Source: Kiritimatiellia bacterium
GTDB lineage: Bacteria; Verrucomicrobiota; Kiritimatiellia; JAAZAB01
Direction: 5' to 3'
DNA: 64,000 nt
NCBI GenBank assembly: GCA_040767085.1
Contig: JAXGPF010000013.1
Location: 96,001 to 160,000, forward strand
Shown here: positions 18,862-54,986 of the stretch, one piece after another
Layout of the letters: each line of letters begins with the position of its first letter
Numbering within the stretch: the stretch's first letter is position 1
Notes under the pieces: model-generated
What the model saw: only the letters and a program-made list of their open reading frames with translations
Told to the model about the DNA's origin: nothing
Databases searched by the model: none
Translations under genes and position numbers: made by a program

Positions 18862-20402
<1,541 letters not shown>

Positions 20403-25051: not shown

Positions 25052-25496
25052 CATCGGGGTCGGACCACAGCAACTTGTTGTAAATCATAGTGATAAGTTC
25101 CAAGAGGGGGTGTTTTCGGGCCTTAAACCTCCATTTTCAGGGCCGAAAACAGCGGCATGCACCCCATCTGTGCTTGGGTCTGATCCGTTACCCGACAGCG
25201 CATCATGGAATCTCCCCGGATTCCTTGCTGAACTTGCCGGACTCCGCCGGAGAAAATGAAGGCGGTAAGTAAAGCCGGTCCGCGACAAGATGTTATTTTC
25301 TGAAATTTAGGTGAATATCGGCGTCAAATTATCTCCGCATTGTTTGGCCTTCATGCCGACCGGTCTATCATATCCCGGCGCCCCGGCATGGGGGGTACTT
25401 CCCCGGACGGATACGAATATTCTGCGCAAAGTAGCGGGAAAAATGCCAAGAATCACGGACTGACCCCTTGCCCCCTTGCCCCCCTTGCCCCTTGCA

Positions 25497-25625
25497 GGAG
25501 ACCGGGATCGAACCGGCGATCCCGCCGCAGCGGCGGGACAAGCCCCGCCAGGGAGCGGGGTAAACCCCGCCACGTAGCGGGGCAAGCGTTCAGCCTTGTC
25601 CCGCCTCCTGGCGGGATTGGGAAGC
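25497..25625 (-). pseudogene. tRNA-Gly fragment (anticodon to T arm) with four mini-hairpin insertions
   Basis: Removing 25520-25586 (3 units) and 25595-25616 (1 unit) restores sequence identical to part of the intact tRNA-Gly. Confidence 0.9.
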
Positions 25626-25862
25626 GGGTAGATTACGCAGGAAATCTTTAACACCTGCGGCCTTGATTTTCTTTTCTATCCCGCGCGCAACAGTGTAGCT
25701 GTCCACGGTCGTATGAAAAACAAGTTGCCAGTCGTGAGCGCGAGCCGTCCACTTGCTTCGGCCCTGCAAGTGTTGTTTCAGCCTGCGCGCAAGATGCTTC
25801 GATATGCCGACATAAAAACGGCCGAGGGATTTTGAATACAGGATGTAGACGTAAACATCCAT
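25590..25862 (-). CDS. Small stand-alone GIY-YIG nuclease (SLX1/UPF0213-like), 90 aa
   Basis: YVYIL..FYVG..RRLKQH..G.SKWT..W.LV..E.KIK; the C-terminus and stop codon lie inside the downstream pseudo-tRNA. Confidence 0.88.
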   Translation of the reverse strand: MDVYVYILYSKSLGRFYVGISKHLARRLKQHLQGRSKWTARAHDWQLVFHTTVDSYTVARGIEKKIKAAGVKDFLRNLPASQSRQEAGQG

Positions 25863-25871
25863 GTAGGAAAG

Positions 25872-25939
25872 TGGAGCGGGAGACCGGGATCGAACCGGCG
25901 ACCCCGCCGCAGAGCGGGGCAAGCGTTCAGCCTTGTCCC
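25872..25939 (-). pseudogene. tRNA-Gly 3' half (with CCA) carrying one full and one truncated mini-hairpin
   Basis: Identical to the tRNA 3' end, including flanking AAAG, except for insert 25902-25923 and partial insert 25932-25939. Confidence 0.9.
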
Positions 25940-25946
25940 TTAAAAG

Positions 25947-26021
25947 TGGAGCGGGAGACCGGGATCGAACCGGCGACGTTCAGCTTGGGAAGCTGACATT
26001 CTACCACTGAATTACTCCCGC
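25947..26021 (-). tRNA. tRNA-Gly(CCC)
   Basis: GCGGGAG..CTCCCGC-T-CCA; anticodon arm TCAGC-TTCCCAA-GCTGA; T loop TTCGATC; 75 nt. Confidence 0.96.
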
Positions 26022-26034
26022 AAAACTCAATTCT

Positions 26035-26177
26035 AATCGGCGACCCCGCCGCAGAGCAGGGTAAACCCCTCCGCAGAGCGGGGCAAGCGTTCAGCCCTGT
26101 CCCGCCTTCCTGGCGGGATTGGGAAGCTGACCCCGCCAAAGAGCGGGGTAAACATTCTACCACTGAATTACTCCCGC
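26035..26177 (-). pseudogene. tRNA-Gly 5' two-thirds with four mini-hairpin insertions
   Basis: Inserts at 26044-26065, 26066-26087, 26096-26118 and 26131-26152; the remainder matches the intact tRNA. Confidence 0.9.
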
Positions 26178-26402
26178 AATACGTCTCTCTACACCGGTTA
26201 AACTGGCAGAAATATCCCGCTGAGTCAATCTTATTTCCATGGATGATGCAATGGGGGATGTACGACAAATTTGGTGGTGATTCGAATAAACTTTAATTTC
26301 ACGGCGGATTTCAGTGTGATATATGATCTCGCCATAGATACAATTCTGTAAATTCCGGTAATTTCGGCCAGGTTACACCATCCTGGCCGAAATTGGGCCA
26401 CC

Positions 26403-26617
26403 GCGTTGCGAATTCCGCTCCCCGAGCTTGTCGAGGGGTTCGAAAAGACAAGGCAAGTTTGGGGTGGATGCGTGGGCGCAGGTGGGCGGGGCTAATCTGG
26501 TGATTGCCCCGCTCCCGGCAAGCCCGCCCGCAGGGTCCGCGCAGCGGACAGACGCCCCAAAGAACGCCTGTGCGGCTCGCACTCGCCGCCGTGCTTTTCG
26601 AACGGAATTCGCTACGC
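26403..26617 (-). repeat. TIR-bounded structured repeat family C, copy 1
   Basis: TIR GCGTTGCGAATTCCGCTC/GAACGGAATTCGCTACGC (16/18); homologous to 56185-56377. Confidence 0.7.
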
Positions 26618-26797
26618 ACCCCCACCGCCGCACTACCCCAACAAATTTATCTTACATCCTGCAATGGCGAGCCCGGCTGCCCACACCGCCTTGTCCAACG
26701 TTTACTTGATAAATATCCGCCGGAAATGTATCTTTGACTGACATGGCCGGGCATGGGGCGCGGCTGGCATGACTGGCAAGGGGACGGAACTGAGATT

Positions 26798-27856
26798 ATG
26801 CGGCAAATTCATTTAAAATTGATTCCCGGCGACGGCATCGGCGTGGATGTGATTAACGAGGCGCGGCGGGTATTGGAATGCCTGGCGGATAAGCACGGCG
26901 GAGTGCGATTTAAGATCGACACCATGCCCTGGGGCTGCGGGTATTACCTGGAGCACGGCCGCATGCTGCCGGACGACGGCCTGAAAATCCTGGCCGATTG
27001 CGACGCCATCCTGCTGGGCGCCGTGGGGTTCCCGGGCGTGCCGGACCATGTCTCGCTGCAACTGCTCCTCCCCATCCGCCAGCAATTCGATCAGTACGTC
27101 AATTTCCGCCCGGTGAAACTGCTGGAAGGACTGGATTCCCCCCTGAAGGTCAAATCCAACCGCGATATTGATTTTGTGGTCATCCGCGAGAATACCGAGG
27201 GCGAATATTGCGGCCGCGGCCATACCTACGACGATCCGGCCAAGGGTCCGTCAGTGGTGCAGGAGGCGCACTTCAGCCGGCACGGCACCGCCCGCATCAT
27301 CCGTTATGCTTTTGAATACGCCAGGCGCAACGGGTTGACGGATGTCGTCAGCGCCACCAAGTCCAACGCGCTTAACCATTCCATGGTGTTCTGGGACGGA
27401 ATTTTCAAGGAAATCCAGGCCGGCTACCCCGGCATCCACGGCCGTTGCGTCCATGTGGACGCGCTGGCCGGGCTCTTCATCCTGAAACCGCAAATCCTGC
27501 GGGTGGTGGTGGCCAGCAACCTGTTCGGCGACATCCTGACGGACCTGGGGTCGGCCATGCTGGGCGGCATCGGCATCTCGCCTTCCGCCAATATCAACCC
27601 CGAGAAAAAATTCCCCAGCATGTTCGAGCCGGTGCATGGCTCCGCGCCGGATATTGCCGGCAAGGGCATCGCCAATCCCGTCGGCGCCCTGTGGTCCACG
27701 GCTTTAATGCTGGAACATTTGGCGGAACCAGAACTGGCAGATCGTTTGATGGCGGCCATGGGCGGCGTCCTGGCGGAGCGCCAAATCCGCACGCCGGACT
27801 TGGGCGGCACGGCCACCACCGCGGAGGTGGTGGAGGCTGTGATCGCCCGCATTTAA
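26798..27856 (+). CDS. Tartrate/3-isopropylmalate dehydrogenase family protein
   Basis: IPGDGIG, RENTEGEY, SATKSN, SNLFGDILTD, FEPVHGSAPDIAGKGIANP. Confidence 0.9.
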   Translation: MRQIHLKLIPGDGIGVDVINEARRVLECLADKHGGVRFKIDTMPWGCGYYLEHGRMLPDDGLKILADCDAILLGAVGFPGVPDHVSLQLLLPIRQQFDQYVNFRPVKLLEGLDSPLKVKSNRDIDFVVIRENTEGEYCGRGHTYDDPAKGPSVVQEAHFSRHGTARIIRYAFEYARRNGLTDVVSATKSNALNHSMVFWDGIFKEIQAGYPGIHGRCVHVDALAGLFILKPQILRVVVASNLFGDILTDLGSAMLGGIGISPSANINPEKKFPSMFEPVHGSAPDIAGKGIANPVGALWSTALMLEHLAEPELADRLMAAMGGVLAERQIRTPDLGGTATTAEVVEAVIARI

Positions 27857-27892
27857 AGGATTTTGTGGGCTTACCATGGGAGACAAGGAACG

Positions 27893-29195
27893 ATGAATCA
27901 GAACACAGAGATTGCCGTATTAGGCGCGCCGATGCATGCTTCGCCGCTGCGCCTGGCGGTGGATTGCAATGAAAGTATATGCAATTTTGTCCCCGAAGCC
28001 GCCCGCGTGCGGGCTCCAGGCCGAGATCAACACCGGCCATGACGATCCGGATTTGCTGTTTGAGAAGGCCGGCCCGCGCGCCAAAATCTTTTTCGAGCCG
28101 GCGCGCACGCGGGCGGCGATTGTAACCTGCGGCGGACTCTGCCCGGGATTGAACAATGTCATCCGGTCGGCCTTCCTGGAATTGCACCATAATTACGGCG
28201 TGCCGGATGTGCTGGGCATCCGGTACGGCTACCAGGGACTGAACCCGGACACCGCGGCCCCGCCCATTAAGTTGACCACGGATTTCGTGGATGACATCCA
28301 TACCGATGGCGGCACAGCGCTGGGCTCGTCCCGCGGGCAGCAACCGATCGGGACCATGGTAGATTTCCTGGAACGCGAAAAAATCAACATCCTGCTATGC
28401 GTAGGCGGCGACGGCACACAGCGCGGCGCCAATGCCATTGCCGTGGAAGCCCGCAAGCGCGGCCTGCCGCTGGCGGTGGTCGGCGTGCCCAAGACGATTG
28501 ATAACGACATCTGCTTTGTCCGCCAGAGTTTCGGTTACTTCACGGCGATCGAGAAAGCGCGCGAAGTGCTGGCCTGCGCGCATAATGAGGCCAAAGGCGC
28601 GCCGAACGGCATCGGCCTGGTGAAACTTATGGGGCGCGATGCCGGCTTCATTGCCGCCGGCGCCACGCTGGCCAGCCAGGAGGTCAACTTTACCATCATT
28701 CCCGAAGTGCCCTTCCGGCTGGAAGGCGAGCAGGGCTTTTTAAATGTGCTGCGCCGCCGTATCCTGACGCGCCAGCATGCCGTGATCGTGGTGGCGGAAG
28801 GCGCCGGGCAGGACCTGCTGGCGGCTGGCGCGGCAGCTTTCGACGCCTCGGGCAACAAGCTGCAAAAGGATATCGGGACATTCCTGCGCGACCGGATCCT
28901 GGAGTATTTCCGGGAGCAGAAAATTCCCATTAACATGAAATACATGGAGCCGGGGTATTTCATCCGCAGCGTGCCGGCCGATGCCGAGGACAGCCTGCTG
29001 TGCGATCAATTTGCGCGCCAGGCGGTGCATGCCGCCCTGGCCGGCAAAACCGACATGCTGGTGGGGCACTGGTCCAGCTATTTCATCCACGTGCCGATTG
29101 CCATGGCAGTGGCCCAGAAGCGCAATCTCAATCCCGCCCGGCCGATGTGGAACAGCGTGATTGCCGCCACCGGCCAGCCGCGGCAGTGGGAGTGA
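27893..29195 (+). CDS. pfkA: ATP-dependent 6-phosphofructokinase with an apparent +1 frameshift near 28011-28013
   Basis: TCGGLCPGLN, GGDGT, PKTIDND, MGRDAG. A plausible N-terminus MNQNTEIAVLGAPMHASPL..NFV lies in another frame from ATG 27893 after AAGGA. Confidence 0.8.
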
Positions 29196-29201
29196 GCATT
29201 G

Positions 29202-29271
29202 GTGCCTTAAACCACAGCACCTGCCAAAAAAAACAAGAAAATCGGAGGGCAGGTGCTGAAGTTTAAGGCAC
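29202..29271. terminator. Long hairpin downstream of pfkA
   Basis: GTGCCTTAAAC..CAGCACCTGCC / GGCAGGTGCTG..GTTTAAGGCAC. Confidence 0.5.
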
Positions 29272-29589
29272 GGTGCAAGTGCAGGCAACAAGTACAGGCT
29301 TGTCCAGAAGCAACTGGATGCAGTCAGTCCGGCATAGCCGGACGGGGACGGATGATTCCGGATTGGCTCCGGATCAAACTACCAAGCAAAGCTTGGCAAG
29401 CTTTCACCACCTCACGGGAGGATGGCAAGCTTGCAGCTTGCACCGCCACACCGGAGGGCGGCAAGCTTTCGGCGGCGGTCCGGCGGCCGCCGGATGCAGG
29501 TTTGTCCAGTAGCAACTGGATGTAAGCTGTTCGGTATTATCACATTGCGATATGTTTGCCAAAAACAACACATACAGCACAATCTGGAG

Positions 29590-30237
29590 ATGATCGCCAT
29601 GCCCGAACAGCCGCCCGCCGTGGACCCTGTTGTGCCGGTGAAACGTCCTCCATTCAACGAGGTTTCGGTGCTGTTCCCGATCCTTGCTTTGTGCACTGTG
29701 GCATACCTGGCCATGGTCGCGTCTGAATTCTTCCTGCAAGGCGCCTTGCGGACGCCGGCCCTGATGTTGCCGGTTTACATCGCCTTGCTGGGCGCCTATG
29801 CCGCGGACAAGGAAATTCGGCGCTGGGTTGGCACGCCCGAGCCGCCCCGCCAGGGCTCGCTGTTTGTCTATGCCTGGTTGCTGCTGTTTTTAGTCATGGT
29901 GATAATAAATTATTTCCGGGCTGATTTCCCATTGCCCGGCGATTTGGGCAAGGTGGTGCTGCAAGTGCTGGGCATTTTCTTTGGATCCAAGACTTCCAAA
30001 TATGTCCATGAACGGCGTCTGGATACTGTCACGGACGATCCCGAGGCTCAGTCCAGGCTGATGGAGCGGCTGCGGGCTGCGGGCAAATTGACGCGGTCGG
30101 ACGCCATGGCGCTTTTAGGCATATCCAAGAGCACTGCCAACCGGCTGTTGGCGCGCATGCAGGAGCAGGGGCTGATCCGGCTGGTGGGCGAAGGCCGCGG
30201 GGCGCATTATATTGCCATCCCGGAACTTGACCCTTGA
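29590..30237 (+). CDS. Membrane protein (about 4 TM) with C-terminal winged HTH
   Basis: Hydrophobic N-terminal half; LTRSDAMALLGISKSTANRLL..GLIRLVGEGRGAHY; GGAG upstream; stop codon lies in the MITE B end. Confidence 0.7.
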   Translation: MIAMPEQPPAVDPVVPVKRPPFNEVSVLFPILALCTVAYLAMVASEFFLQGALRTPALMLPVYIALLGAYAADKEIRRWVGTPEPPRQGSLFVYAWLLLFLVMVIINYFRADFPLPGDLGKVVLQVLGIFFGSKTSKYVHERRLDTVTDDPEAQSRLMERLRAAGKLTRSDAMALLGISKSTANRLLARMQEQGLIRLVGEGRGAHYIAIPELDP

Positions 30238-30543
30238 ATTTTGCACGAATATTGGTGTTGAATTGATTTGAAGCAATTAACGAGCGTGCAAATTAAAATT
30301 TGCACAGTTATTTGTTATCACCCATATGGTTAAATAAGCACGGTTTCCAGAAACACCAATATTCATCGGCAGCCGGCCGCGCGATTTTGGCGCAGGGCTT
30401 TGTTGCTCGGGGTCCCGCTTCGCGGGATAAATCCCGCTCCGTGGGATAAACTTTGCGGCTTGTCCCGCTTTGCGGGATATACTTATACAGCGGCACCCCT
30501 CGCGCCGCGCCCTGCGCCAAACTTACGCGGTGCAAAATTCAGG
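30233..30543. mobile_element. MITE family B, copy 1 (311 bp) with three mini-hairpin insertions
   Basis: TIR CTTGAATTTTGCAC/GTGCAAAATTCAGG; colinear with 54734-54986 plus inserts 30413-30431, 30432-30450 and 30459-30477. Confidence 0.85.
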
Positions 30544-30583
30544 TGGCGAAATCCAAAACGCCCCGCTGGCTTGAAACGTTTCT

Positions 30584-30644
30584 GGGGCGTTTTGGGGCGT
30601 TAATGGGGCGTTTTGAGCCGTTCCCGGGGCGTTTCTGGGGCGTT
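30584..30644. repeat. Helically phased GGGGCGTT direct repeats
   Basis: Copies at 30584, 30594, 30605, 30615 (degenerate), 30626 and 30637. Confidence 0.75.
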
Positions 30645-30871
30645 TATTTGTCAACGCCGGTTTGCCTTCCGCCGGTTTGAACATACCCCTTTGCTTAAAC
30701 CTGTTCCAAACCGCAGTGCCGTTGGCGTCGTTCAAAGGCGCCGCCGCCAGAAAAAGGCAATGGACATCAGGCGTCTAAAGTGATAATTAATTATGGGAAT
30801 TTCGGCGCGGGTGCAGTTGAAGTAGCATCCCATAGAAAACCGCTTGATTCTCTCACAAAGCCGCAAAGAAG

Positions 30872-31378
30872 ATGCGGATAACGGCATATATCGGCTCAGT
30901 TGCAGTCGTTCCAGATAATTTTGAGGAAGCCTACGTTAGCCAACACGTTGCGTGCTGCCGACTCCTTCCTGGGGTGGCCAATCACAAGTGGCTCGGCTAC
31001 GTTCTCCTTTCCCCGATCGGGCAAACCCATGGATCTCTCTGCATGTATGGCGGGACGAAACAAGGCCTCTCGCTCGATGATGTGAAGAACTACCTGCTGC
31101 TCCTCCCGCCACACCATGAACAGAGCGCACTTGTGATGAGGATCGAGAATGAAACCGCACGCCTCGACACCGCCCTTTCCCGCGCCACCCGCCAGATCGC
31201 CCTCATGCGCGAGTACCGGACCCGTCTGATTGCCGACGTTGTCACGGGGAAGGTGGACGTGAGAGCTGTCGCCGCCACGCTGCCGGATCTGCCGCCGGAA
31301 TCGCCATTCGCTCCGCCCTCAGAGTCCACCCCGTCCGACGATCCACAAGAGGAGGCCGCCGATGACGTCGAAGCGTAA
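30872..31378 (+). pseudogene. hsdS: Type I restriction-modification specificity subunit, C-terminal fragment
   Basis: GSVAVV..VSQHVA..GGTKQGLS..LPPHHEQ..EYRTRLIADVVTGKVDVR; N-terminal part missing. Confidence 0.8.
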
Positions 31379-31887
31379 CACGCGGCCGGAATGCCGGGCG
31401 GCGCGCGAAACGCCCGCCTTCTATGGCGGGCCGGGCGGCGAGATCGTGCTGTACCGCGCTCCGGACGGGACGGTGTCGCTTGACGTGCGGCTGGAGCGGG
31501 AGACGGTCTGGCTGGACGCAGAAGCAGATGTCTGAGTTGTTCGCCACCGAGCGCAGTGTGATCACCAAGCACTTGCGCAACATCTTCCAATCCGGAGAGT
31601 TGGATCGCGGTTCAGTATGTGCATTTTTTGCACATACTGCCGCCGACGGAAAGACCTACCAGGTGGAGTTCTACAACCTTGATGCGGCGATCTCAGTCGG
31701 CTACCGCGTCAACTCCAAGCGCGGCACCCAGTTCCGCCTCTGGGTCACGCGGGTGTTGCGCGACCACATTCTCGCCTGCCTTGCCGACCATATGGAACTC
31801 TTTAAACAGTTCCAGGACAACGAGAGTTTTTGCAAGTGGCTCAGCGATTCGATCTTTGCCGCCACATATCGGAAGTCGGCGAGTTAA
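31362..31887 (+). pseudogene. Frameshifted RhuM-like fragment fused to an HsdR-like C-terminal tail
   Basis: GEIVLY..VRLERETVWL / TQKQMSELF..YNLDAAISVGYRVNSKRGTQFR (frameshift near 31515), followed by DHMELFKQFQDNESFCKWL. Confidence 0.7.
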
Positions 31888-31956
31888 CTGCGAGGAGCCG
31901 ATCCGACAGGGCGATCCCCAGAATCATCTGCAGCGCGGCGTTCGTATAACACCCGT

Positions 31957-33732
31957 TCAGTCCACCACGACGGTGGCCTGGTCATACAGGATTGTGCCGC
32001 TCAGGTCCAGGATGCCGTCCATGGGGTAATCAATGGCGAACCAGAAGTCATAGGCGCCGCTGGGCAGACGAAATCCGTCTAATACCTTTGTGGCGGGCAG
32101 GTCGCCCAGCGGCCCCTGGTAAACCGGCTGGCAGAACGCCAAATTACCGTCAAAAGGCGTCCATTGCATGGCGCTGTTCAAGTAAAACCATGCGCCGGAA
32201 TGTGCGTAGGCCACAACCCACCAGTCAACTTCCACGCCGGCATATGGCCCTGTATTCATCATCTGAACGGCGATCGTAACGGCATCGCCGCTGCCAAGAC
32301 GCACCTCGCCCATCAGTTCGTTGGCGGTGATCAGCGGGCCGGCGGTCGGGGGCGTGGCGGGAACACCAGCCAGGTGCGCGACCGTTCCGACTGAGGCCCG
32401 GACGAGGTCGGTGAAATACTCCATGTTCATATGGGCCAGCGTGTCCTGGTTGGTATGATAGTAAGGATTGAAGTCGGAATCGCTTTCTATGAGCAGCACG
32501 CCGGGGTATCCCTTCTGCCAGAAGCTGTAATGGTCGCTCGCTTCGACGCCGTCCGACACGATTCCCAGGGTCAGCCTGTCATCCAGGCCGTAGTTGGCGA
32601 GCACGTTCTCGAACGTGGTCGCCACGGCCATGTCCGCCGCATAACCGGGCGCGGTCGCCAGGCGGGTGTGGAGGCTCAAATCGCGGGAGGCGCGCGAGCT
32701 ATAGGCGATCATGTCCATGTTGAACACGGTGACGTTAGTTTCGCCCGCATCCTGGAGGGTCTGGGCATACGCCGCGGAGCCCAGCAGCCCTTGCTCCTCG
32801 CCGCCGAAACAGACGAATTGGATAGTCCGTTCCGTGAAACACCCCTGCAGGATATTCGCTGCCGCCATGACTCCCACGCAGCCGCTGGCATTGTCATCCG
32901 CGCCGGGGGCGCGGGTCCCATCGTCAGGCATGTTGTCAATGTGGGCCGTGATGAGCACAATCTCGTTGGAGCGGGTGGTGCCCCGCTTGATTCCCACGAT
33001 ATTTTGTCCGCTGTAGGTCCCGTCGTTCAAACTCCAATCCTGGTATGAAACTTCCAGCCCCGCCGCCTGCATCTGTTCGTAAGCGAACTGGTTTGCCTTC
33101 CGTATGGGCGTGCCCGACGAAGTGCCGCGGGTCAGGATGGTGTAAGGTTCGCCGCCGATCATGGCCGGGACCGCCCCGGAGAGTTGCGCGGTAAGATTTG
33201 ACAGCGTGTCCTGGTACACCTGATGGATCAGGTTGGAGATGATAGGTTTGGCTATGGCGGCGTTGCGTGCCGGCGGAACGGAATCCGCCGGGCCCGCTGG
33301 CCATACCAGCGGCGTGTTGATTTGAACGATTGCCAGGCCCATCCCCATGAGCTCCGCCTTTTGCGCGGGGGAAGGCGTCACGATCAGCCGGCGGCCGTCG
33401 TCATACAAGGCGGCGATTTGCTTCCGACCCCGCGCCAGCGCGCCAGGCAGGCGCTCGATGGCCAGCGAGAGCGCGGCAATATCCGGGTTGTGCGCCAGCA
33501 CGGTGAAAGGCCATCCGGCCTGCTCCAGTTCGGCCGCGGTCGCCACGGCCAGAACATACTCACGTCCGCCGGCGTCGGACAAATGGGCATGGACCGGCAG
33601 TCCCAGCCGGTCCACCCGATCCATCGCCTCCACGCGCGCCAGCACGGCGTCCGGCCGCTGGCCCATAGCCGGGTAAACCGTCAGGATCATGGAAAGGCAA
33701 GCCAACAGCGGACCTAATCGGGCGGTTTTCAT
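31957..33732 (-). CDS. Secreted M28-family aminopeptidase with shared C-terminal domain
   Basis: Signal peptide; TAHID, GADDNASG, GEEQGLLGS, NMDMI, SDHYSF, YHT. Confidence 0.9.
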   Translation of the reverse strand: MKTARLGPLLACLSMILTVYPAMGQRPDAVLARVEAMDRVDRLGLPVHAHLSDAGGREYVLAVATAAELEQAGWPFTVLAHNPDIAALSLAIERLPGALARGRKQIAALYDDGRRLIVTPSPAQKAELMGMGLAIVQINTPLVWPAGPADSVPPARNAAIAKPIISNLIHQVYQDTLSNLTAQLSGAVPAMIGGEPYTILTRGTSSGTPIRKANQFAYEQMQAAGLEVSYQDWSLNDGTYSGQNIVGIKRGTTRSNEIVLITAHIDNMPDDGTRAPGADDNASGCVGVMAAANILQGCFTERTIQFVCFGGEEQGLLGSAAYAQTLQDAGETNVTVFNMDMIAYSSRASRDLSLHTRLATAPGYAADMAVATTFENVLANYGLDDRLTLGIVSDGVEASDHYSFWQKGYPGVLLIESDSDFNPYYHTNQDTLAHMNMEYFTDLVRASVGTVAHLAGVPATPPTAGPLITANELMGEVRLGSGDAVTIAVQMMNTGPYAGVEVDWWVVAYAHSGAWFYLNSAMQWTPFDGNLAFCQPVYQGPLGDLPATKVLDGFRLPSGAYDFWFAIDYPMDGILDLSGTILYDQATVVVD

Positions 33733-33774
33733 TTTTTCGATTCCTGTGTTTGGTCTGGTAATGGCAAATTCGCG

Positions 33775-35715
33775 TCAGACGAACCCGATGCGCTGGCAGT
33801 TAAGTTTTTCCTCGGGGATTTCGCGGATGAACCGCGAGGGCATGAAGAAATTCATGCCGCCGTCAAAAGACCGGCGGGTTTCGGGAGCGCACAGGGTCAG
33901 GTCGTCCTTCGCGCGGGTGACGGCGACGTAGAACAGGCGGCGCTCTTCCTCCTCGCCGTCGGCATCCTCCATGGAGCGCATGGAGGGAAACATGCCGTCG
34001 GCCGCCCAGATGATGAACACCGTTTGCCATTCCAGGCCCTTAGCCTGGTGCACGGTGCTCAGGCGCAGGCAATCGCGGTCCCGGCCGGCGGCGACGTCGT
34101 TTTCCGCGTCCACGTTGGTCACCAGCGCCACCTCGTTCAGAAAATCGGCGGTGGATTCGAAGTCGGCGGTGAAGAGAATCATCTCGCGGATATCGTCCAG
34201 GCGCCGCCGGGCATCCTCGTAGGTGTCCAGGGCGTATTTCTCGTAAAATGCCTTGACGAATAGTCCGATCGCTTCGCCCGGGTCGTCGGCGAGTGCTTCG
34301 TCGAAATATTTTTCCAGCACCGGCTGCACTGCCCGCCAGGGCGGGCGGGCGCCTTCCGGCAGCAGGTTGAGCAGCGCCGCGCGGGCGGCGGGATCCTTGA
34401 CCTCGCAGCGGTCGCCGAGTTTATGCCACAAGCGTTCGGCGGTCTTCGGCCCCACGCCGGGGAACATGCCCAGCAGGCGTTTGAAGGCCAGGATGTCGCT
34501 GGGATTGTGCAGGACGCGCAGGAAGGCGCAGGCATCCTTGATATGGGCTTGTTCGAAGAACCGCACGCCGGAGGTGACGATATAGGGGATATGTTCCCGC
34601 GCCAGCACCATTTGCAGTTCCATGGCGTGGTGGTGGGCGCGGTAAAGGATGGCCATGTCGCGCCAGGCGCCGCCGGCCTGGCGGCGCCGGCGCAACTGGT
34701 CCACGACATAGCGGGCCTGGTGGTCGCCGTCGCGCAGCAGGGCCAGCACCGGCTTGCGGTGCGCCGGCCGGGTAGGGCGGAGCACCTTGCTGAATTGCTT
34801 GGGATTGCCGGCAATGCAGCAGTTGGCCACTTCCAGGATTTCCGGAACGCTGCGGTAGTTGGTTTCCAGCTTGAACATTTTGGCGTCGGGATAGCGGTCG
34901 GGGAAGGACATGATATTGCGGTAATCCGCGCCGCGCCAGGCATAGATGCTCTGGAAATCGTCGCCCACCACCAGCAGGTTGCGATGCTGGGCGGCCAGCA
35001 GGTCCACCAATTCGGCCTGGACGGAATTGGTATCCTGGTATTCATCCACCATGGTGTACAGGAAGTGCTCGCGGTAATGCGCCAGCGCCGCCGGCTGCTC
35101 GTGGAAGAGTCGCAGGCTGTTGAGGAGCAGGTCGTCGAAATCCATCAGGTTTTGTTTGGTTTTTTTGTCTTGGTATCTGCGGTAAACCTTCAGCACGTCG
35201 GTTTCGTCCACCGGGTGGTTTTCAAAGCGCTCCCGGATCAGCTCCTCGATGACCAGGCGCCGGTTGGCGGCGGCGCTGAACAATGCCAGCAGGACTTCCG
35301 GCTTGGGGAATTCGCGGCTTTTCAACTTCAAATCGGCCAGGCATTCGCGCATGAGGGTGCGGCTGTCATCGGCGTCCAGGATGGTGAAATCGGCGGTGTA
35401 GCCGATGAGGTGGGCGGTGCGGCGCAGAATGCGGTTGGCCATGTGGTGGAAAGTGCCGCCCCACATCCCGCCCACGCCCTGGCTGACCAGGGCCTCGGCC
35501 CGCGCGAGCATTTCCTTGGCCGCGCGGTTGGTGAAAGTCAGCAGCAGCAGGCGGCGCGGGTCCGCGCCCCGGCTGAGCAGGTAGGCCACCCGGTAAACCA
35601 GGGTGCGGGTTTTGCCGGTGCCGGCGGCGGCCAGGATAAACAGGGGGCCATCCGGGGCGGTCACCGCGGCCAATTGTTCCGGGTTCAATTCGCGTTCGAA
35701 GTCAATTTGCGCCAT
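33775..35715 (-). CDS. UvrD/PcrA-family ATP-dependent DNA helicase
   Basis: AAAGTGKT, TFTNRAA, DEYQD, GDDFQSIY, NYRS, STVHQAKGLE, EERRLFYVAVTRA. Confidence 0.95.
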   Translation of the reverse strand: MAQIDFERELNPEQLAAVTAPDGPLFILAAAGTGKTRTLVYRVAYLLSRGADPRRLLLLTFTNRAAKEMLARAEALVSQGVGGMWGGTFHHMANRILRRTAHLIGYTADFTILDADDSRTLMRECLADLKLKSREFPKPEVLLALFSAAANRRLVIEELIRERFENHPVDETDVLKVYRRYQDKKTKQNLMDFDDLLLNSLRLFHEQPAALAHYREHFLYTMVDEYQDTNSVQAELVDLLAAQHRNLLVVGDDFQSIYAWRGADYRNIMSFPDRYPDAKMFKLETNYRSVPEILEVANCCIAGNPKQFSKVLRPTRPAHRKPVLALLRDGDHQARYVVDQLRRRRQAGGAWRDMAILYRAHHHAMELQMVLAREHIPYIVTSGVRFFEQAHIKDACAFLRVLHNPSDILAFKRLLGMFPGVGPKTAERLWHKLGDRCEVKDPAARAALLNLLPEGARPPWRAVQPVLEKYFDEALADDPGEAIGLFVKAFYEKYALDTYEDARRRLDDIREMILFTADFESTADFLNEVALVTNVDAENDVAAGRDRDCLRLSTVHQAKGLEWQTVFIIWAADGMFPSMRSMEDADGEEEERRLFYVAVTRAKDDLTLCAPETRRSFDGGMNFFMPSRFIREIPEEKLNCQRIGFV

Positions 35716-36559
35716 GGTCCCCCGCCACCGCCACCATGGCCAATTGCATGCGATCCGCCGCCTGGATCACTTTCTCGCGCTCCAGCAAAATTGTGCGGCC
35801 AGCTTCCACGGCCAGCGCGCCGGCGCCGGCTTTCTTGAGGATGGCCATGGTTTTCAGACCCACCACCGGGATATCGAAGCGCATGTCATGCCCTTGCTTG
35901 GCGACTTTCACCGCTACCAGGCCCAGGCCGCCCAGTTTGCCGGCTCGCAGCAAGGCGGCATCCGTGCCCTCAAACGCTTCGACGGCGAGGATGACGCCTT
36001 CCTTGACGGCCACCGTCTGGCCGATTTCCAGGCTGCTGATGGTTTTGGCCACGCGCAGACCCAGTTCAATATCGCTTTGTTCGCGCGCGGTCGGCGCGCG
36101 CGCGCTCAATTGGCCGGGCGCCGGCATGGCCTGCTCCATGAACAGCCAGGCCGGCAGCAAGGTCACCCCCGCGGTTTGCAACTCGGCGCTGACGGCGCCG
36201 AAAATAGTATGGGCATTGCGCGCCCGCAAGCCGGCCAGGATTTGCAGGGCCCGGCGGTCCGGGCGCAGGCGGAAAAGGCTGGTAGGGGTGATCTGGCCGG
36301 CCATCACCGCCTGGCGGATGCCGGCGCGGCGGAGCAATGTCAGCATGGCCTCCAGTTGGCCGAAATTCAGCCAGTGGACTTCATCCGCCAGTTTGGCGAT
36401 GGACGGATCGGTTTCTTTCTTGAAGGCCACGGCCACCAGGCGTTGGACTCCCTGGCGCCGGGCGGATTCCGCCAGCAGCAGCGGGTAGGCGCCGCGCCCG
36501 GCGATCAGGCCTAGCTGGTCGGGCAGGGCAATGCTGGGATTGAGTTTGCTGGCGGGCAT
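35702..36559 (-). CDS. lpxI: UDP-2,3-diacylglucosamine diphosphatase LpxI
   Basis: LIAGRGAYP, IGQTVAV, AVEAFEGTD, DMRFDIPVVG. Confidence 0.9.
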   Translation of the reverse strand: MPASKLNPSIALPDQLGLIAGRGAYPLLLAESARRQGVQRLVAVAFKKETDPSIAKLADEVHWLNFGQLEAMLTLLRRAGIRQAVMAGQITPTSLFRLRPDRRALQILAGLRARNAHTIFGAVSAELQTAGVTLLPAWLFMEQAMPAPGQLSARAPTAREQSDIELGLRVAKTISSLEIGQTVAVKEGVILAVEAFEGTDAALLRAGKLGGLGLVAVKVAKQGHDMRFDIPVVGLKTMAILKKAGAGALAVEAGRTILLEREKVIQAADRMQLAMVAVAGDHGAN

Positions 36560-36730
36560 GGCATGGCGCAGAGCGTGAATCCTGGTTGGGGTTAGTGAGG
36601 CCTCATCATACCATGCCAGGACTCCATGTCAATCCGCGGTTCTGCCGTGCGCCGGGAAAAGGATGAAGCAAAAGGTCATTTTAAAACCGGCGGAAGAAGA
36701 ATCGTTTCAAACCGGCGTTGACAGTCTTCG

Positions 36731-36756
36731 GTAGGGCGGGCAGTCCCTTGCCCGCC
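36731..36756. repeat. GTAG-tagged REP-like palindrome
   Basis: GTAG-GGCGGGCA-GTCCCT-TGCCCGCC. Confidence 0.6.
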
Positions 36757-36778
36757 TTGATTATCACGGCGCGGCGCG

Positions 36779-37162
36779 CTAGGCGCGGTCATCCGGCTGG
36801 CGGATCGGATTCTTCTCTTTACCGTGGCTGTATTTGATGATTTTGATCTTTTCCAGCGTGATCAATCCTCCGGATTGGGCCTCTTCAAAAAGGGCATCCA
36901 GCACGGGCAGGAAGCGGTTAATTTTTTCCTCCTCGTCGGAAATTTCGACAACAATGGGGAGGTCCGTCGAAAGATCAAGAATTTTGGCTGTTCGGATGCG
37001 GCTGTTACGGCCGAACCCCATCACACCTCTCCAGGCGGTTGCCCCCGCCAGCCCGAATTTTCGCGCTTCCTTGACGATCACTTCGTAGAGAGAGGTGTGA
37101 TTGACCTTGTCGGACTCGCCCAGAAAAATGCGCAAAAGTTTCGCATCTTCTTTCAACTCCAT
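36779..37162 (-). CDS. DUF190 (PII-like) protein
   Basis: LLRIFLGESD, GLAGAT..RGVMGFG, LSTDLPIVVE; directly downstream of crcB. Confidence 0.9.
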   Translation of the reverse strand: MELKEDAKLLRIFLGESDKVNHTSLYEVIVKEARKFGLAGATAWRGVMGFGRNSRIRTAKILDLSTDLPIVVEISDEEEKINRFLPVLDALFEEAQSGGLITLEKIKIIKYSHGKEKNPIRQPDDRA

Positions 37163-37563
37163 AATCCACCTCCGGTTTTAACGAGGATTCGCACAGCCAT
37201 GTCTCCGGCGATAAAAGCCAGCATGGAGAGCAGGAAAGTCCCGGCGGCGTAGATTGTTGCATACAGATATTCGCTGGCGCGCACCATTTCCGCGGTTTCA
37301 TAGATCATGGATGACATGGTGGTGAATCCCCCGCAGAACCCGGTGGCAAGGGCCAGGCGGATTTCCGGGGGCAGGGTGGCGCCGCGGGCCGAAAGTCCGG
37401 TGAGCATGCCGATCAACAGGCAGCCGAGGACGTTGGCTGCCAGGGTGCCGCAGGGCCAAGACAGCGCGAAGCGCTGCGTGGCGACACTCAACCCGTACCG
37501 GGCCGCCGATCCGGCAAAACCGCCCAAACCCACCAGCAGGGTCATGCCCCATGGATTTGTCAT
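37153..37563 (-). CDS. crcB: Fluoride efflux channel CrcB/FluC
   Basis: GGFAGSAARY, GTLAANVLG, TGFCGGFTTMS. Confidence 0.9.
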   Translation of the reverse strand: MTNPWGMTLLVGLGGFAGSAARYGLSVATQRFALSWPCGTLAANVLGCLLIGMLTGLSARGATLPPEIRLALATGFCGGFTTMSSMIYETAEMVRASEYLYATIYAAGTFLLSMLAFIAGDMAVRILVKTGGGLWS

Positions 37564-37616
37564 TGATTCTCCCGGCACCCGGCCGGCGCCGGCCCGCTTG
37601 CAGCAATATGCCCGAT

Positions 37617-37656
37617 TCCATGGCGGCATGATGGGTCAACAGCATGCCGCCATGGA
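37617..37656. terminator. 14-bp stem hairpin after glnA
   Basis: TCCATGGCGGCATG-N12-CATGCCGCCATGGA; no U tract. Confidence 0.5.
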
Positions 37657-37661
37657 GCGGC

Positions 37662-39086
37662 TCAGATGTCGTAGTACAGGGCGAATTCCCAGGGGTGGGG
37701 CCGCAAATCCAGCGCCATCACCTCGTTTTTCATCTTGTAGTTGATCCAGGTATCCACCACGTCCGGGGTGAAGACGTCGCCTTTCAACAGGTAATCCTGA
37801 TCGGCGGCCAGCGCCTTCAACGCCTCCCGCAGCGAGCCGGGCGTCTGCGGCACCTGGGCGGCTTCCTCTGGCGGCAAATCGTAAATATCCTTGTCCAGCG
37901 GCTCGCCGGGATGAATCTTGTTCAGGATGCCGTCCAGCGCCGCCATCAGGATTGCCGACATCGCCAGGTAGGGGTTGCAGCTTGGATCGGGACACCGGAA
38001 TTCGACGCGCTTGGCCTTGTCCGACGGCGAATACATCGGCAGGCGCACGGCCGCGCTGCGGTTGCGCCGCGAATAAGCCAGGTTGACCGGCGCCTCATAG
38101 CCCGGCACCAGCCGTTTGTAACTGTTGGTGGTCGGGCTGACGAACGCCAGGAGCGACGGCGCATGCTTGAGAATGCCGCCGATGGCGAACATCGCCATTT
38201 CCGACATGCCCGCGTAGCCGTCGCCGGCGAACAGGTTCCGATCGTTCTTCCAGAGCGACATGTGCACATGCATGCCGCTGCCATTGTCGTTAAAGAGCGG
38301 CTTGGGCATGAAAGTCGCCGTTTTGTTGTGGGCCAGCGCGACGTTCTTGATTACATATTTGTATTTCAAAAGGTTGTCGGCGATGTTCACCAGGGAATTG
38401 TAGCGCATGTCAATTTCGCATTGCCCGCCGGTGGCGACTTCGTGGTGCTGGGCTTCAATCGGCACGCCGATGCGTTCCAGGGTCAGCATCATCTCGCTGC
38501 GGATGTCCTGGAGGGTGTCGCTCGGGGGGACGGGAAAATAGCCTTCCTTGTAGCGCGTCTTGTAGCCCAGGTTGGGATTTTCCACGCGGCCGCTGTTCCA
38601 TTGACCTTCCACGGAATCCAGGTAGTAATAGCCTTCATGGGCATTCTGGTCGAAGCGGACATCGTCAAAAATGAAAAATTCCGCCTCCGGGCCGAAGTAA
38701 CCCGTGTCGGCGAGGCCGGTCCGGCGCAGGTAGGCTTCCGCCTTGCGGGCGATATTGCGCGGGTCCCGGGTGTAATCTTCGCCGGTGATGGGATCGCAGA
38801 TATTACAGATCATCACCAGGGTTTTGGCTTTGAAAAACGGGTCAATGAATGCCGTCTCGGATTGCGGTTTCACCAGCATGTCGGACTCGTTGATTGCCTG
38901 CCAGCCGCGGATGCTGGACCCGTCAAAGCCCAGCCCCCGTTCGAAAGTATCCTCGTCCACCGCCGCCGCCGGCACGGAAAAATGCTGCCAAAGTCCCGGA
39001 AAATCCATGAACCGGAAATCCACCACTTCAATCTGCTCGCGTTTAATCAAACTGACTACATCCGCGGGGTGCTTAATACCGTCCAT
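37662..39086 (-). CDS. glnA: Glutamine synthetase type I
   Basis: [48 protein letters not shown]. Confidence 0.97.
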
Positions 39087-39190
39087 TGTGGCTCCTGTAT
39101 AATTTGTTGATACCTGATTCCGATAAACCCCGGTCATGCAGCAATCTTGCATGCCTGACCAGAACGAACTCAAAACCAATTTCTTGTTTT

Positions 39191-39207
39191 AGCATTTATC
39201 GTGCCAA
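39191..39207 (-). promoter_or_regulatory. sigma54 -24/-12 promoter of glnA
   Basis: Minus strand TTGGCACGATAAATGCT (GG-N10-GC), about 105 bp upstream of the start. Confidence 0.8.
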
Positions 39208-39566
39208 GGTTGCTGAAATAATTCGAATTTATTTCAGAAGTCAGGTTTTGAAAGCAATATTCAGTAAGCACATCAGATGCCGAACGCCGTTCGGCTACTA
39301 CAGCAGATTCACTACGGAGACGCGGAGGCGCAGGGCAATCCGGTCTCGCCTGTGCTCCTCTGATCTCTGTGGTTAAATCCTTATCCGGCCGCCGGTTTCT
39401 GGCGAGGAGCAAAAAGTTAAAAAATTAAGGTTTTATGAACAACGGACACGGAACGCTTCTTAAAATACAAATATGTAATATCAAATCATCAATAGTACAA
39501 AAATGTAGTTGATGTTACGGAAGATGTCGAAAATGTGCGGAAATGAAAAAATGGGCGAATCGATTC

Positions 39567-40784
39567 CTAGCGGGTCAGGCGGGCAAAGCCCCGCTTGCCG
39601 ACCTGCAAGATGCAGCCCGTGGCAACTTCCACGTCGGCCCGGGGGTCGGTTATTTTCTGGTCGCCCAGGCGGACGGCGCCCTGCTGGACCAGGCGCCGGG
39701 CGGCGGCGTTGCTTTCCGCCAGGCCGGCGGCTACGATGAGGGCGGCCACCCAGATGCGATTATCCTTGAATTGGTCGGCTGGCAGGACCACTTCGGGCAT
39801 ATCCTTGGGCAGTTGATGTTCGGCGAAAACCCTTTTGAATTCCACTGCGGCGGCCGCGGCCGCCTCCGCGCCGTGGAACTTGCCGGTCACGGCCTGCGCC
39901 AATTCGTCCTTGAGATCGCGGGGATGCAGTTTTCCCGCGGCCAGGGCCTGTTGTCGGCTGACAGTTTCAGAGGCCGGCCGGCACAGGACCAGTTCGAAGT
40001 ACCGCCACATCAACTCGTCGGGGATGGACATCAATTTGCCGTACATGGCGTCGGGCGGTTCCGTCACCCCGACGTAGTTGCCGAGGCTTTTGCTCATTTT
40101 ACGGTTGCCGTCCAAGCCTTCCAGCAGCGGCAGGGTCAGCACGGACTGCTGTTCCTTGCCGAAAGCCTTTTGCAGGTCGCGGCCGACCAGCAGGTTAAAC
40201 AACTGGTCGGTGCCGCCGATTTCGACATCGGCGTCAACCATCACCGAATCGTATCCCTGCACCAGGGGGTAGAGCAGTTCCACCAGCGACACCGGGAAAT
40301 TCGCCTGCATCCTTTTTTGAAAATCCTCCCGCGCCAGCATGCGGGCAACGGTAATTTTAGCGGTCAGACGCAGGATATCTTCGAATTTCAGGGGCGCGCA
40401 CCATTCGGAATTAAAACGGACTTCCGTGCGCCGCGGATCGAGGATTTTAAAAACCTGTTCCTGGTAACTGCGGGCATTGTCCTGGACTTGTGCGCGCGTC
40501 AGGGGCGGACGGGTATCGGAGCGTCCGGAAGGATCGCCGATCATGCCGGTGAAATCGCCGATGATGAAGACCACCAGGTGCCCCAGGTCCTGGAATTCGC
40601 GGAGTTTGTTCAGCCCCACCACGTGCCCCAGGTGGATATCCGGCGCGGAGGGGTCGGCCCCGTATTTGACGCGCAATGGCCGGTTAGCGGCGCGGGCCTG
40701 TTCCAGTTTGCGGCGCAACTCGTCGCGGGAGACCAGGTCTACAGCCCGGTCCGTGATGATGTCCAGTTGTTGATCGATTTCCAT
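39567..40784 (-). CDS. tyrS: Tyrosine--tRNA ligase
   Basis: GADPS..HLGH, YPLVQGYD, GGTDQLFN, KMSKS, C-terminal S4 domain. Confidence 0.97.
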   Translation of the reverse strand: MEIDQQLDIITDRAVDLVSRDELRRKLEQARAANRPLRVKYGADPSAPDIHLGHVVGLNKLREFQDLGHLVVFIIGDFTGMIGDPSGRSDTRPPLTRAQVQDNARSYQEQVFKILDPRRTEVRFNSEWCAPLKFEDILRLTAKITVARMLAREDFQKRMQANFPVSLVELLYPLVQGYDSVMVDADVEIGGTDQLFNLLVGRDLQKAFGKEQQSVLTLPLLEGLDGNRKMSKSLGNYVGVTEPPDAMYGKLMSIPDELMWRYFELVLCRPASETVSRQQALAAGKLHPRDLKDELAQAVTGKFHGAEAAAAAAVEFKRVFAEHQLPKDMPEVVLPADQFKDNRIWVAALIVAAGLAESNAAARRLVQQGAVRLGDQKITDPRADVEVATGCILQVGKRGFARLTR

Positions 40785-40812
40785 GGCGTGGCGCGCAGGA
40801 TCAAGACTGTCA

Positions 40813-41105
40813 CCTTAATCCGTGACGGGATTTTATGTTGTTAAGACAATGTCTGAATAAACAACAATTTATGAAGTTTTACAATATCACCAAAGATGTG
40901 CGGCGTTGTTTGACTGAAAAGACCGCCCTGCGGGTGAGGCCATTGTGCCGCATCTGCTTTGTTGCGAAGGATCCCGCTTTGCGGGATAAACTTGCGGCTT
41001 GTCCCGCTATAGCGGGATATGTTTATACAGCTTCATCCTTCGCGCCGCGCATCCTTGTCCCGCTTCCAGCGGGATGCGGCATACTGGCCTCATCACGGAT
41101 TCAGG
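40813..41105. mobile_element. MITE family A, copy 2 (293 bp) with three mini-hairpin insertions
   Basis: TIR CCTTAATCCGTGA/TCACGGATTCAGG; TSD TGTCA/TGTTA; 233 bp + 19 + 20 + 21 bp inserts at 40972, 40998 and 41054. Confidence 0.85.
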
Positions 41106-54733: not shown

Positions 54734-54986
54734 CCTGAATTTTGCACGAATATTGGTATTGAAATTATTTTAAGCAATCATAATGCGTGCAAATTAAAAT
54801 TGCACCGTTATTTATTATCAACCATATGGTTACACAAGCATAGTGTCCGGAAACACCAATATTCGCCTGCAGCCGGCCGCGCGATTTTGGCGCAGGGCTT
54901 TGTTGCTCGGGGTTTTGCGGTATATTTATACAGCGGCACCCCTCGCGCCGCGCCCTGCGCCAAACTTGCGCGGTGCAAAATTCAGG
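54734..54986. mobile_element. MITE family B, copy 2 (253 bp, no inserts)
   Basis: Perfect TIR CCTGAATTTTGCAC/GTGCAAAATTCAGG; 5-bp TSD TAATA. Confidence 0.88.

Follow-up and report, generated by a model that had tools for sequence, protein, structure and literature searches.

We describe a short tagged hairpin, hereafter the unit, that has been inserted with exact borders and without target duplication into tRNA gene remnants and palindromic repeats of a sludge bacterium of the Kiritimatiellia. The DNA analyzed, hereafter the window, is a stretch of 64,000 nucleotides (C5:96001-160000) from a 4.08-Mb, 28-contig assembly with ~61% G+C (code G000); coordinates without a contig name are those of the window. 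We observed how the unit is built, that its sites gain it, a strict rule by which two units pair, its spread within one Kiritimatiellia family, and its association with a cassette that encodes a small GIY-YIG nuclease, P0001. As for the nature of the units, the chances seem to us about even that they are small, non-coding hairpins belonging to one general class with the NTS and SRM hairpins of Ssn nucleases, that they partner an Ssn-type GIY-YIG nuclease, and that they are pasted into foldable DNA. A single assembly here offers filled and empty sites, exact borders, strict pair geometry, stacking, and a candidate source cassette in a tRNA gene, and it provides unusually clean evidence that such hairpin repeats move as single units. 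Three sets of genomes were used for comparison: 41 relatives, 33 genomes of the bacterial family, and 201 genomes of the class.

A tagged hairpin dispersed through the genome

The unit, 19-24 bp long and most frequently 21 bp, is a palindrome followed by a four-base 3′ tag (CAAG, TAAA or CAGG). Cores were searched with the pattern YCCCGC-N(2-9)-GCGGGR, and a core was considered tagged if CAAG, TAAA or CAGG lay on its 3′ side or the reverse complement of a tag on its 5′ side. The pattern found 15 cores in the window. Twelve are tagged units, with perfect cores at 25520, 25543, 25565, 25599, 25902, 26100, 26131, 30413, 30463, 40972, 41002 and 41058; the other three (13329, 50300, 52094) are untagged and were taken as chance hairpins. 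A looser core occurred 19 times, compared with a mean of 3.5 and a maximum of 9 in 50 shuffles. Three more full units carry one stem mismatch (26044-26065, 26066-26087 and 30432-30450). Together with the twelve perfect cores, these account for all 15 full units listed in a preliminary description of this DNA, each of them at its assigned place.

Across the whole genome, 65 of 111 core hairpins were tagged, while none was tagged in the reversed-sequence genome, which served as the control for genome-wide counts. When up to one substitution was allowed, 128 units were found, compared with 28 in the control. Among the 40,595 perfect 6-bp hairpins of any sequence in the genome, the tags associate with TCCCGC and CCCCGC stems. 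The units are not confined to the loci first noted, as the 65 perfect copies occupy ~21 flank contexts and occur in both orientations. They share a stem (TCCCGC in 46/65) and have 33 distinct loops, in agreement with the earlier statement that stems are conserved and loops vary. The whole palindrome is conserved in each unit, beyond the inner arm, and C directly follows the palindrome in 39/65. Two of the contexts, with 17 and 14 copies (31/65 perfect units), are fixed sites in one family of miniature inverted-repeat transposable elements (MITEs) that took its units along; the number of independent contexts is therefore roughly twenty, not 65.

Stems other than YCCCGC were recovered by a self-BLAST scan for indels of 15-32 bp between paralogous repeats. 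Tagged YCC-stem hairpins made up 15 of 67 indel clusters, compared with 6 of 2000 random segments, and their stems include TCCGCC, TCCAGT, CCCTGC and CCCTCC. The family is therefore wider than YCCCGC and takes the form YCC...GGR plus tag. By tag, YCC-stem hairpins numbered 72 vs. 4 in the control for CAAG, 35 vs. 3 for TAAA, and 23 vs. 2 for CAGG. One variant of this kind lies in the window:

29299..29318, minus strand: variant-stem unit CTTG+TCCAGA..ACTGGA, occupied here and missing from a paralogue

Inside another repeat, positions 29380-29470 hold a series of short hairpins ending in GG+CAAG (CCAAGC..GCTTGG, CCACCTC..GAGGATGG and CCGCC..GGCGG). The hairpin at 29407-29429 within this series is missing from a paralogue.

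Gain of units in tRNA-Gly remnants

One group of units surrounds an intact tRNA-Gly gene, which is accompanied by three partial copies and by the GIY-YIG open reading frame (ORF). The features of this locus are as follows.

25497..25625, minus strand: partial tRNA-Gly copy A (about tRNA positions 28-66) with four units, overlapping the 3′ end of the GIY-YIG ORF
25520..25542, plus strand: unit TCCCGC-loop-GCGGGA+CAAG, first in a three-unit tandem stack at the tRNA variable-loop site
25543..25564, plus strand: unit CCCCGC-loop-GCGGGG+TAAA, second in the stack
25565..25586, plus strand: unit CCCCGC-loop-GCGGGG+CAAG, third in the stack
25595..25616, minus strand: unit (on the plus strand CTTG+TCCCGCC..GGCGGGA) at tRNA position 38/39
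25590..25862, minus strand: gene of the single-domain GIY-YIG nuclease P0001, 90 aa, its last codons from a tRNA remnant and a unit
25872..25939, minus strand: partial tRNA-Gly copy B (3′ part) with a full unit (25902-25923) and a truncated unit, cttgtccc (25932-25939)
25947..26021, minus strand: intact tRNA-Gly(CCC), which represents the empty state of the sites used in the tRNA copies
26038..26177, minus strand: partial tRNA-Gly copy C (5′ part to the start of the T-stem) with four units, 26044-26065 and 26066-26087 (tRNA position 46/47), 26096-26118 (38/39) and 26131-26152 (26/27)

Insertions in the three partial copies fall at tRNA positions 26/27, 38/39 and 46/47. The unit at 25595-25616 and the stack at 25520-25586 form an inverted pair across an 8-bp tRNA segment, cgttcagc. 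The truncated unit, the tandem stacking of up to three units at one site, and the use of the intact tRNA as an empty allele had all been proposed for this locus, and all were borne out. Since the canonical tRNA-Gly, intact here and in relatives, carries no units, it is the tRNA remnants that gained them. The direction of change at the tRNA sites is gain, not loss, which contradicts the notion that the short alleles arose only by deletion from a hairpin-bearing ancestor.

In a relative of the same genus (G003, locus L014), three identical tandem units occupy tRNA position 46/47, while the stack of three in the present genome is mixed. Stack turnover is therefore fast, and some stacks arise by local duplication. 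A short tandem array of CCCCTTG/CCCCCTTG at 25466-25495 adjoins tRNA copy A. Read on the other strand, it consists of about four repeats of GGGG(G)CAAG. This sequence corresponds to the 3′ half of a unit stem together with the tag, and looks like a reiterated unit end. The sequence ggggcaag is found beside the cassette in G011 too.

Filled and empty sites in MITEs

Three repeat families of the window supply filled or empty copies:

18862..19094, plus strand: MITE A, empty copy, 233 bp, with a long single-strand hairpin fold (z = -5.65)
40813..41105, minus strand: MITE A, occupied copy, 293 bp, with units at 40972-40990 (19 bp), 40998-41017 (20 bp) and 41054-41074 (21 bp)
30233..30543 (approximate), plus strand: MITE B, occupied copy, with tandem units at 30413-30431 and 30432-30450 and an inverted unit at 30459-30477, around a kept 8-bp ctttgcgg
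54734..54986, plus strand: MITE B, empty copy; the occupied copy is 57 bp longer
26400..26660, plus strand: empty copy of a third repeat family, MITE C

The empty alleles of MITE A and MITE B are real, and the calculation given earlier for MITE A (233+19+20+21=293) is correct. Of 13 aligned copies of MITE A, nine have no unit at any of the three sites, three hold YCCCGC units, and one holds units with other stems. At site 1, the copy on contig C23 has a unit with a TCCCAAT stem, followed 7-8 bp further by an inverted unit with a CCACGCG stem; a unit with a different stem at the same site therefore indicates independent hits. In the fold of MITE A, sites 1 and 3 lie at helix-loop junctions. A paralogue of MITE C (C24:229968-230266) carries an inverted unit pair around a 7-nt tip loop. 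A hairpin at 26536-26551, previously listed as a shorter variant of the unit, is present in 11/11 aligned copies of MITE C; it is therefore a constant part of that repeat, not an inserted unit.

Overall, exact insertions were identified against empty paralogues in four MITE families and against the intact tRNA. No target-site duplication was found at any site with an empty allele (tRNA, MITE A, MITE B, MITE C), nor were there direct repeats at the unit borders in the MITE A and MITE B comparisons. Exact boundaries, insertion without duplication, and both orientations, as claimed in the preliminary description, are thus supported by the empty paralogues and the intact tRNA-Gly. These data also bear on the possibility that the units are immobile, with the hairpin-bearing forms ancestral, the short alleles produced by precise deletion, and the copies multiplied by hitch-hiking in MITEs. 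The 31 perfect units at two fixed sites of one MITE family would suit such an account. The unit-free tRNA contradicts it, no direct repeats at the borders could drive precise deletion, nine of 13 MITE A copies are empty and one has a different type of unit at the same site, and the contexts number 21. We consider this account barely credible.

Near-identical DNA was found in sequencing runs of eight studies, as Logan contigs only, which are interrupted at the units. Two joints pass over units (30412>30478 and 40971>41018); their sides are short, at most 44 nt, and carry the letters of the empty sites. In all likelihood these joints derive from unoccupied paralogues at other places in the genome, and so say nothing on the alleles at these loci. 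One contig from another study spans 25505-25921 with no differences.

Further arrangements were seen in individual MITE copies. In the MITE A copy at C25:371285-371680, the DNA between the units of sites 1 and 2 is gone, as if the two units had recombined; the same copy holds a nested copy of another MITE family. A MITE family with ~20 copies in the genome (e.g., C22:483100-483400) and the ends GGGCTGCGTCATTCTC...GAGAATGACGCAGCCC bears two units at fixed sites. It also shows extra nested hairpin inserts of 28-60 bp that end in GCAGGG+CAAG, and in two copies (contigs C23 and C27) a stretch of its arm is free of units.

Inverted pairs keep 7-8 bp of target between them

Units of this genome that lie at most 60 bp apart follow a strict geometry. 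Inverted pairs with tags inward were spaced by 7 bp in 20 cases and by 8 bp in four, and no tags-inward pair had any other spacing below 25 bp. Five cases were tandem with zero gap. The remaining spacings were 36 bp (one pair) and 57 bp (two pairs) for units of the same orientation, 25 bp for one tags-inward pair, and 12 bp for one tags-outward pair. The pair pattern is present in 20 of the 33 family genomes, this one included, and the backwards control gave none except in G019 (one per strand).

The spacer belongs to the target. At least 30 different spacers were listed across the family, and in 5/5 host contexts the spacer equals the sequence of the empty site: gctgaacg in the tRNA, ccgc(g/a)ag in MITE A, (t/c)tttgcgg in MITE B, tctca(a/t)g in MITE C, and ccggagg in a fourth family, MITE-X. 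In G011, the two units of one pair sit exactly on either side of the 7-nt T-loop in a tRNA-Pro remnant. So narrow a spacing, 7-8 nt, suggests either a molecular ruler or a bias toward 7-nt loops like the ones in tRNAs. In 16 of 21 contexts the unit is preceded by A, and no fixed 4-mer precedes the insertion point in these 21. Local fold-back duplication was considered as the origin of the pairs and rejected, because the stem type, loop and tag of one unit are unlike those of its partner; the second unit is not a local fold-back copy of the first.

Such pairs could also be read as double-stranded binding sites, with 10-bp arms (GCGGGRYAAR) around a 7-8 bp center, serving as the core of a tyrosine recombinase site or as a dimeric operator; the protein that binds them would then be the reason why the hairpins spread or are kept. 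The strict spacing and the symmetric arms fit this, and the layout recalls the core sites lox, FRT and dif. On the other hand, single units and same-direction tandem stacks are common, the entire palindrome is conserved and not just its inner arm, and no recombinase gene was seen beside units in this genome, where no systematic search was made for one. We therefore regard a binding-site function as a slim prospect.

A GIY-YIG gene within a tRNA cassette

P0001 matches Pfam GIY-YIG over residues 4-68 (E = 3.7e-13), which is its sole domain. The codons for its C-terminus, ASQSRQEAGQG, come from the tRNA remnant and a unit. The catalytic-type residues Y6, Y17, H31, R60 and E63 are invariant in 8/8 orthologues. 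NCBIfam gave sub-threshold matches only, and the nearest PDB chain, 1zg2 (UPF0213), is a weak match (E = 0.0057), so that neither places P0001 more finely than GIY-YIG. Units lie on each side of the gene, at 25520-25616 and at 25902-25923. Two pairs of perfect units in the genome are separated by 150-3000 bp; one encloses the P0001 gene, the only ORF so enclosed, and the other encloses the tRNA.

Eight loci were examined: that of P0001 and, from the 41 genomes, those of the seven nearest relatives of the protein, each in a different genome and 44-79% identical (79% for the same-genus ortholog). Five of the eight lie within ~100 bp of an intact tRNA-Gly (four CCC, one TCC). At the G011 locus, an intact tRNA-Gly(CCC) is ~260 bp away, and at the remaining two the available sequence holds no intact tRNA. 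A tRNA-Gly fragment with a hairpin at position 38/39 stands beside the gene in six of the eight loci, including that of G029, which belongs to another family. G029 has the simplest layout: the tRNA comes first, the ORF second, and last a tRNA stretch (positions 28-76) that bears hairpins at 38/39 and 46/47. The type of hairpin in the cassette was compared with that of the genome at three loci:

G000: cassette CCCGC; genome CCCGC 66, CACGC 8
G008: cassette CACGC; genome CCCGC 11, CACGC 23
G011: cassette both types; genome CCCGC 180, CACGC 164

The hairpin type of the cassette tracks the dominant type of the genome.

Further GIY-YIG paralogues lie at tRNA-Asn, Pro, Met, Asp, Lys, Val and Thr genes, some with hairpins of their own, and in G011 units are found within 165 bp of two of five GIY-YIG loci. 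The layout of a GIY-YIG ORF, an intact tRNA, and partial copies broken by hairpins was met at tRNA-Gly, and also at tRNA-Asn (G000) and tRNA-Pro (G011). The literature search found no published description of tRNA-linked cassettes with a mini GIY-YIG gene and hairpins. The tRNA-Asn locus on contig C11 (L010, 1100-1830) has four tandem partial 5′ copies, in each of which a TCCGGC..GCCGGA hairpin takes the place of some of the anticodon arm. Next come the intact tRNA-Asn, another small GIY-YIG gene, and one more copy with a hairpin, the fifth.

Distribution of units, GIY-YIG genes and Y1 genes among relatives

Unit abundance is patchy within one Kiritimatiellia family, and the other relatives are near background. 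Over the set of 41, the highest counts were 180 (G011), 68 (G007), 66 (G000), 59 (G024), 38 (G003), 31 (G023), 29 (G013) and 19 (G017). All eight genomes with at least 19 units match P0001, and none of the 15 that lack a match exceeds 10 units. Because the compared genomes, which are draft assemblies, are related to one another, these co-occurrence counts are not independent.

A different source of mobility could be a Y1 (HUH) transposase encoded elsewhere in the genome, in which case the units would be ordinary repetitive extragenic palindromes (REPs) moved by a REP-associated tyrosine transposase (RAYT) or an IS200-like enzyme. HUH transposition of the IS200/IS605 kind uses single strands, acts on hairpins, and leaves no target duplication, and would fit the units. 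Their size is REP-like, as is their combination of a palindrome and a tetranucleotide tag. The preliminary description had stated that no RAYT is in the window; this is true for the window only, as the genome holds seven Y1_Tnp genes, and no Y1 gene is flanked by units. None of these seven loci has a core hairpin within 3 kb, and none of seven examined in G011 has a tagged unit within 1 kb. Y1_Tnp genes occur in 36/41 relatives, so that their presence does not discriminate; they are found in 9 of 12 relatives with at most two units (e.g., G020 with seven Y1 genes and two units), and G021 has six Y1 genes and three units. Two Y1 loci have a common hairpin of a different type, and the tags are neither GTAG nor CGTC. 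Taken together, it is improbable that a Y1 enzyme moves the units.

The two loci just mentioned, L001 (C25:227717) and L002 (C26:85356), encode proteins of ~350 aa with a long C-terminal extension, and share the hairpin ATTGACATCTYTGTCAAT ~640 bp from the Y1 domain. This hairpin is of the ATTGACA..TGTCAAT type and may be their cognate end. A GTAG-like motif (GGTAGGGCGA) was also tried as the REP of the Y1 genes: it occurs 223 times vs. 227 in the control and does not flank them.

A model for insertion and its difficulties

The closest described nuclease is SsnA of Neisseria meningitidis, a 94-aa single-domain GIY-YIG enzyme that, according to passages of Chenal et al. 2025 (PMC11893778), binds the NTS repeat, CGTCATTCCCGCGMAVGCGGGAATCYRG, in single-stranded form only and cuts a few nucleotides upstream. 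The same passages report that binding depends above all on the C that directly follows the palindrome, that three upstream bases are important for cutting, and that Ssn homologues are usually flanked by related hairpins, SRM. As to how the repeats multiply, the Discussion of that paper offers only an analogy with REP/RAYT (PMC11893778).

Under the reading to which we give about even chances, the home of the units would be a selfish cassette, consisting of the 90-aa GIY-YIG gene beside tRNA-Gly(CCC) and of displaced tRNA fragments plugged with hairpins. The GIY-YIG protein would recognize the tagged hairpin on single-stranded DNA and initiate insertion by nicking. The hairpin would then be copied together with its 3′ tag and pasted in trans into DNA that extrudes as single-stranded stem-loops, such as tRNA gene remnants and palindromic MITEs, the latter at their tips or at irregular spots. 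Insertion would be exact and duplicate nothing, and would usually leave two inverted units whose tags face each other across 7-8 nt of target, in many cases a 7-nt loop. A single rule acting on both strands, whereby hairpin-then-tag is inserted at the junction of the 5′ stem arm and the loop, could yield the symmetric pair, and repeated insertion could yield tandem stacks. Joining would presumably be carried out by host replication or repair. More tentatively, we suggest that this may be an undescribed form of DNA movement driven by a GIY-YIG nuclease, in which a tagged hairpin of 19-24 nt is pasted without duplication at stem-loop junctions, 7-nt loops are the ancestral target, and a resident unit directs its partner across the loop; this fuller proposal we hold as possible rather than probable.

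Several points weigh against the nuclease-based reading. Among the 201 class genomes, a homologue (E <= 1e-10) was found in 53, and only 3 of these 53 have at least 19 units. Conversely, G041 (61 units) and G017 (19 units) lack a homologue at that threshold, and in G042 (19 pairs) the ortholog has an in-frame TAG; these three genomes represent a genus rich in units but devoid of an intact Gly-type gene. With co-occurrence this leaky, the gene is neither sufficient nor, in draft assemblies, strictly necessary. The nearest solved relative of P0001 is only UPF0213, at the E value given above, and membership of the Ssn clade (cd10448) is putative. The SRM motif, HGTCWY..palindrome..RNCYNB, fits 0 of the 65 perfect units (in the genome it occurs 28 times, compared with 8 in the control), because the units have no 5′ GTC tag, which in Neisseria governs cleavage according to passages of PMC11893778. 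The apparent preference for structured DNA is in part ascertainment, because empty sites are recognizable only inside repeats. The tRNA fragments of the cassette could simply be favored landing pads. Finally, GIY-YIG nucleases only hydrolyze DNA and are not known to transfer strands, so that the pasting step is without precedent.

Some of these points would be explained if the units are mobile but are moved by another factor, or by template switching during replication or repair, with the nuclease unrelated and the tRNA fragments a mere landing pad. This we consider unlikely, though well worth keeping in view. The loose co-occurrence and the lack of a known joining chemistry favor it, as do the many genomes whose cassette has its own two hairpins only (e.g., G029, two units) and the entry of units into any foldable repeat. 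Set against this, cassettes of different genera and of another family use the same tRNA position, 38/39, units enclose no ORF other than the GIY-YIG gene, and the passages drawn on here prove that a hairpin with an identical core binds a GIY-YIG nuclease (PMC11893778). The suggestion in the preliminary description that the GIY-YIG protein is the mobilizer therefore keeps its footing in part: the gene is the sole enclosed ORF and stands beside a hairpin-bearing tRNA-Gly remnant in six of the eight loci, but its co-occurrence with units over 201 genomes is loose, and a role in mobilization can be put forward only as a conjecture.

If the nuclease does guide insertion, this would be a new transposition chemistry and possibly a tool for single-stranded DNA. 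The unit would be among the smallest known mobile DNAs, and its movement would show how Ssn-type repeats multiply. The question of hairpin movement becomes testable with one small protein and a few oligonucleotides.

Comparison with known systems

Elhai et al. 2008 (Genome Res 18:1484; cited in PMC5861425 and PMC3116915) reportedly described small dispersed repeats (SDRs) in heterocyst-forming cyanobacteria that are likewise non-coding and mobile, 21-27 nt long, nested in other repeats, and of no known mobilizer. The SDRs reportedly belong to another phylum, have other sequences, and are not known to have an associated nuclease gene. SegB of phage T4 is reportedly a multi-domain phage enzyme without such hairpins. 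It is the nearest published GIY-YIG homing endonuclease of a tRNA cluster (PMC13096335). What differs here from SegB and from tRNA-linked GIY-YIG cassettes is that the hairpin has spread genome-wide as a free unit whose borders are set by empty sites.

Units lack the target-site duplication by which MITEs and DDE elements are recognized. They also depart from palindrome-associated transposable elements (PATEs) derived from IS200/IS605, which enter 3′ of a fixed tetra- or pentanucleotide and whose left and right subterminal hairpins differ: a unit has a single hairpin, and no fixed 4-mer precedes it in 21 contexts. REPINs (Bertels and Rainey 2011), like the pairs described here, consist of two inverted hairpin repeats able to fold into one longer hairpin. 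The spacer of a REPIN belongs to the element and is copied along with it, whereas the 7-8 bp between our units are the target's own sequence, with at least 30 spacers and no spacer conservation. REPs and bacterial interspersed mosaic elements (BIMEs) with RAYTs share more features: the passages of Di Nocera et al. 2013 (PMC3733652) used here describe small palindromes that carry a tetranucleotide tag, frequently form inverted pairs, are patchy among relatives, and insert without target duplication. They differ in that REP tags are GTAG or CGTC (PMC3733652), while the units have CAAG, TAAA or CAGG on the 3′ side, YCC...GGR stems, and no Y1 gene flanked by units.

The closest likeness is to Ssn and NTS. 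As far as the passages of PMC11893778 go, both systems have a single-domain GIY-YIG protein of ~90 aa beside a GC-rich hairpin dispersed through the genome, both have an oriented repeat with C after the palindrome (here in most units), and the core TCCCGC-N4-GCGGGA is common to the NTS consensus and the units. The units differ from what those passages describe in having no 5′ GTC(A) tag, in carrying CAAG, TAAA or CAGG at the 3′ end instead, and in being shorter (19-24 bp). The gene here lies inside a tRNA gene cassette, while the main text of PMC11893778 is without tRNAs or tandem arrays, and the exact sites, inverted pairs at 7-8 bp, and tandem stacks seen here are undescribed in the passages searched (PMC11893778). 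The preliminary description had called the element a distinct ultra-small mobile unit; a tiny insert with exact borders and no duplication it is, but it is not a wholly distinct kind, as its core is the NTS/SRM core. Since the palindrome core is that of NTS and SRM, the units are a variant of the described Ssn pairing. What is new is the inverted-pair rule, with tags inward and 7-8 bp of kept target, and tandem stacking for single units. Two themes, Ssn repeats and tRNA-embedded GIY-YIG cassettes, are linked here, and the way in which Ssn-associated hairpin repeats multiply is the point that this genome lets one approach.

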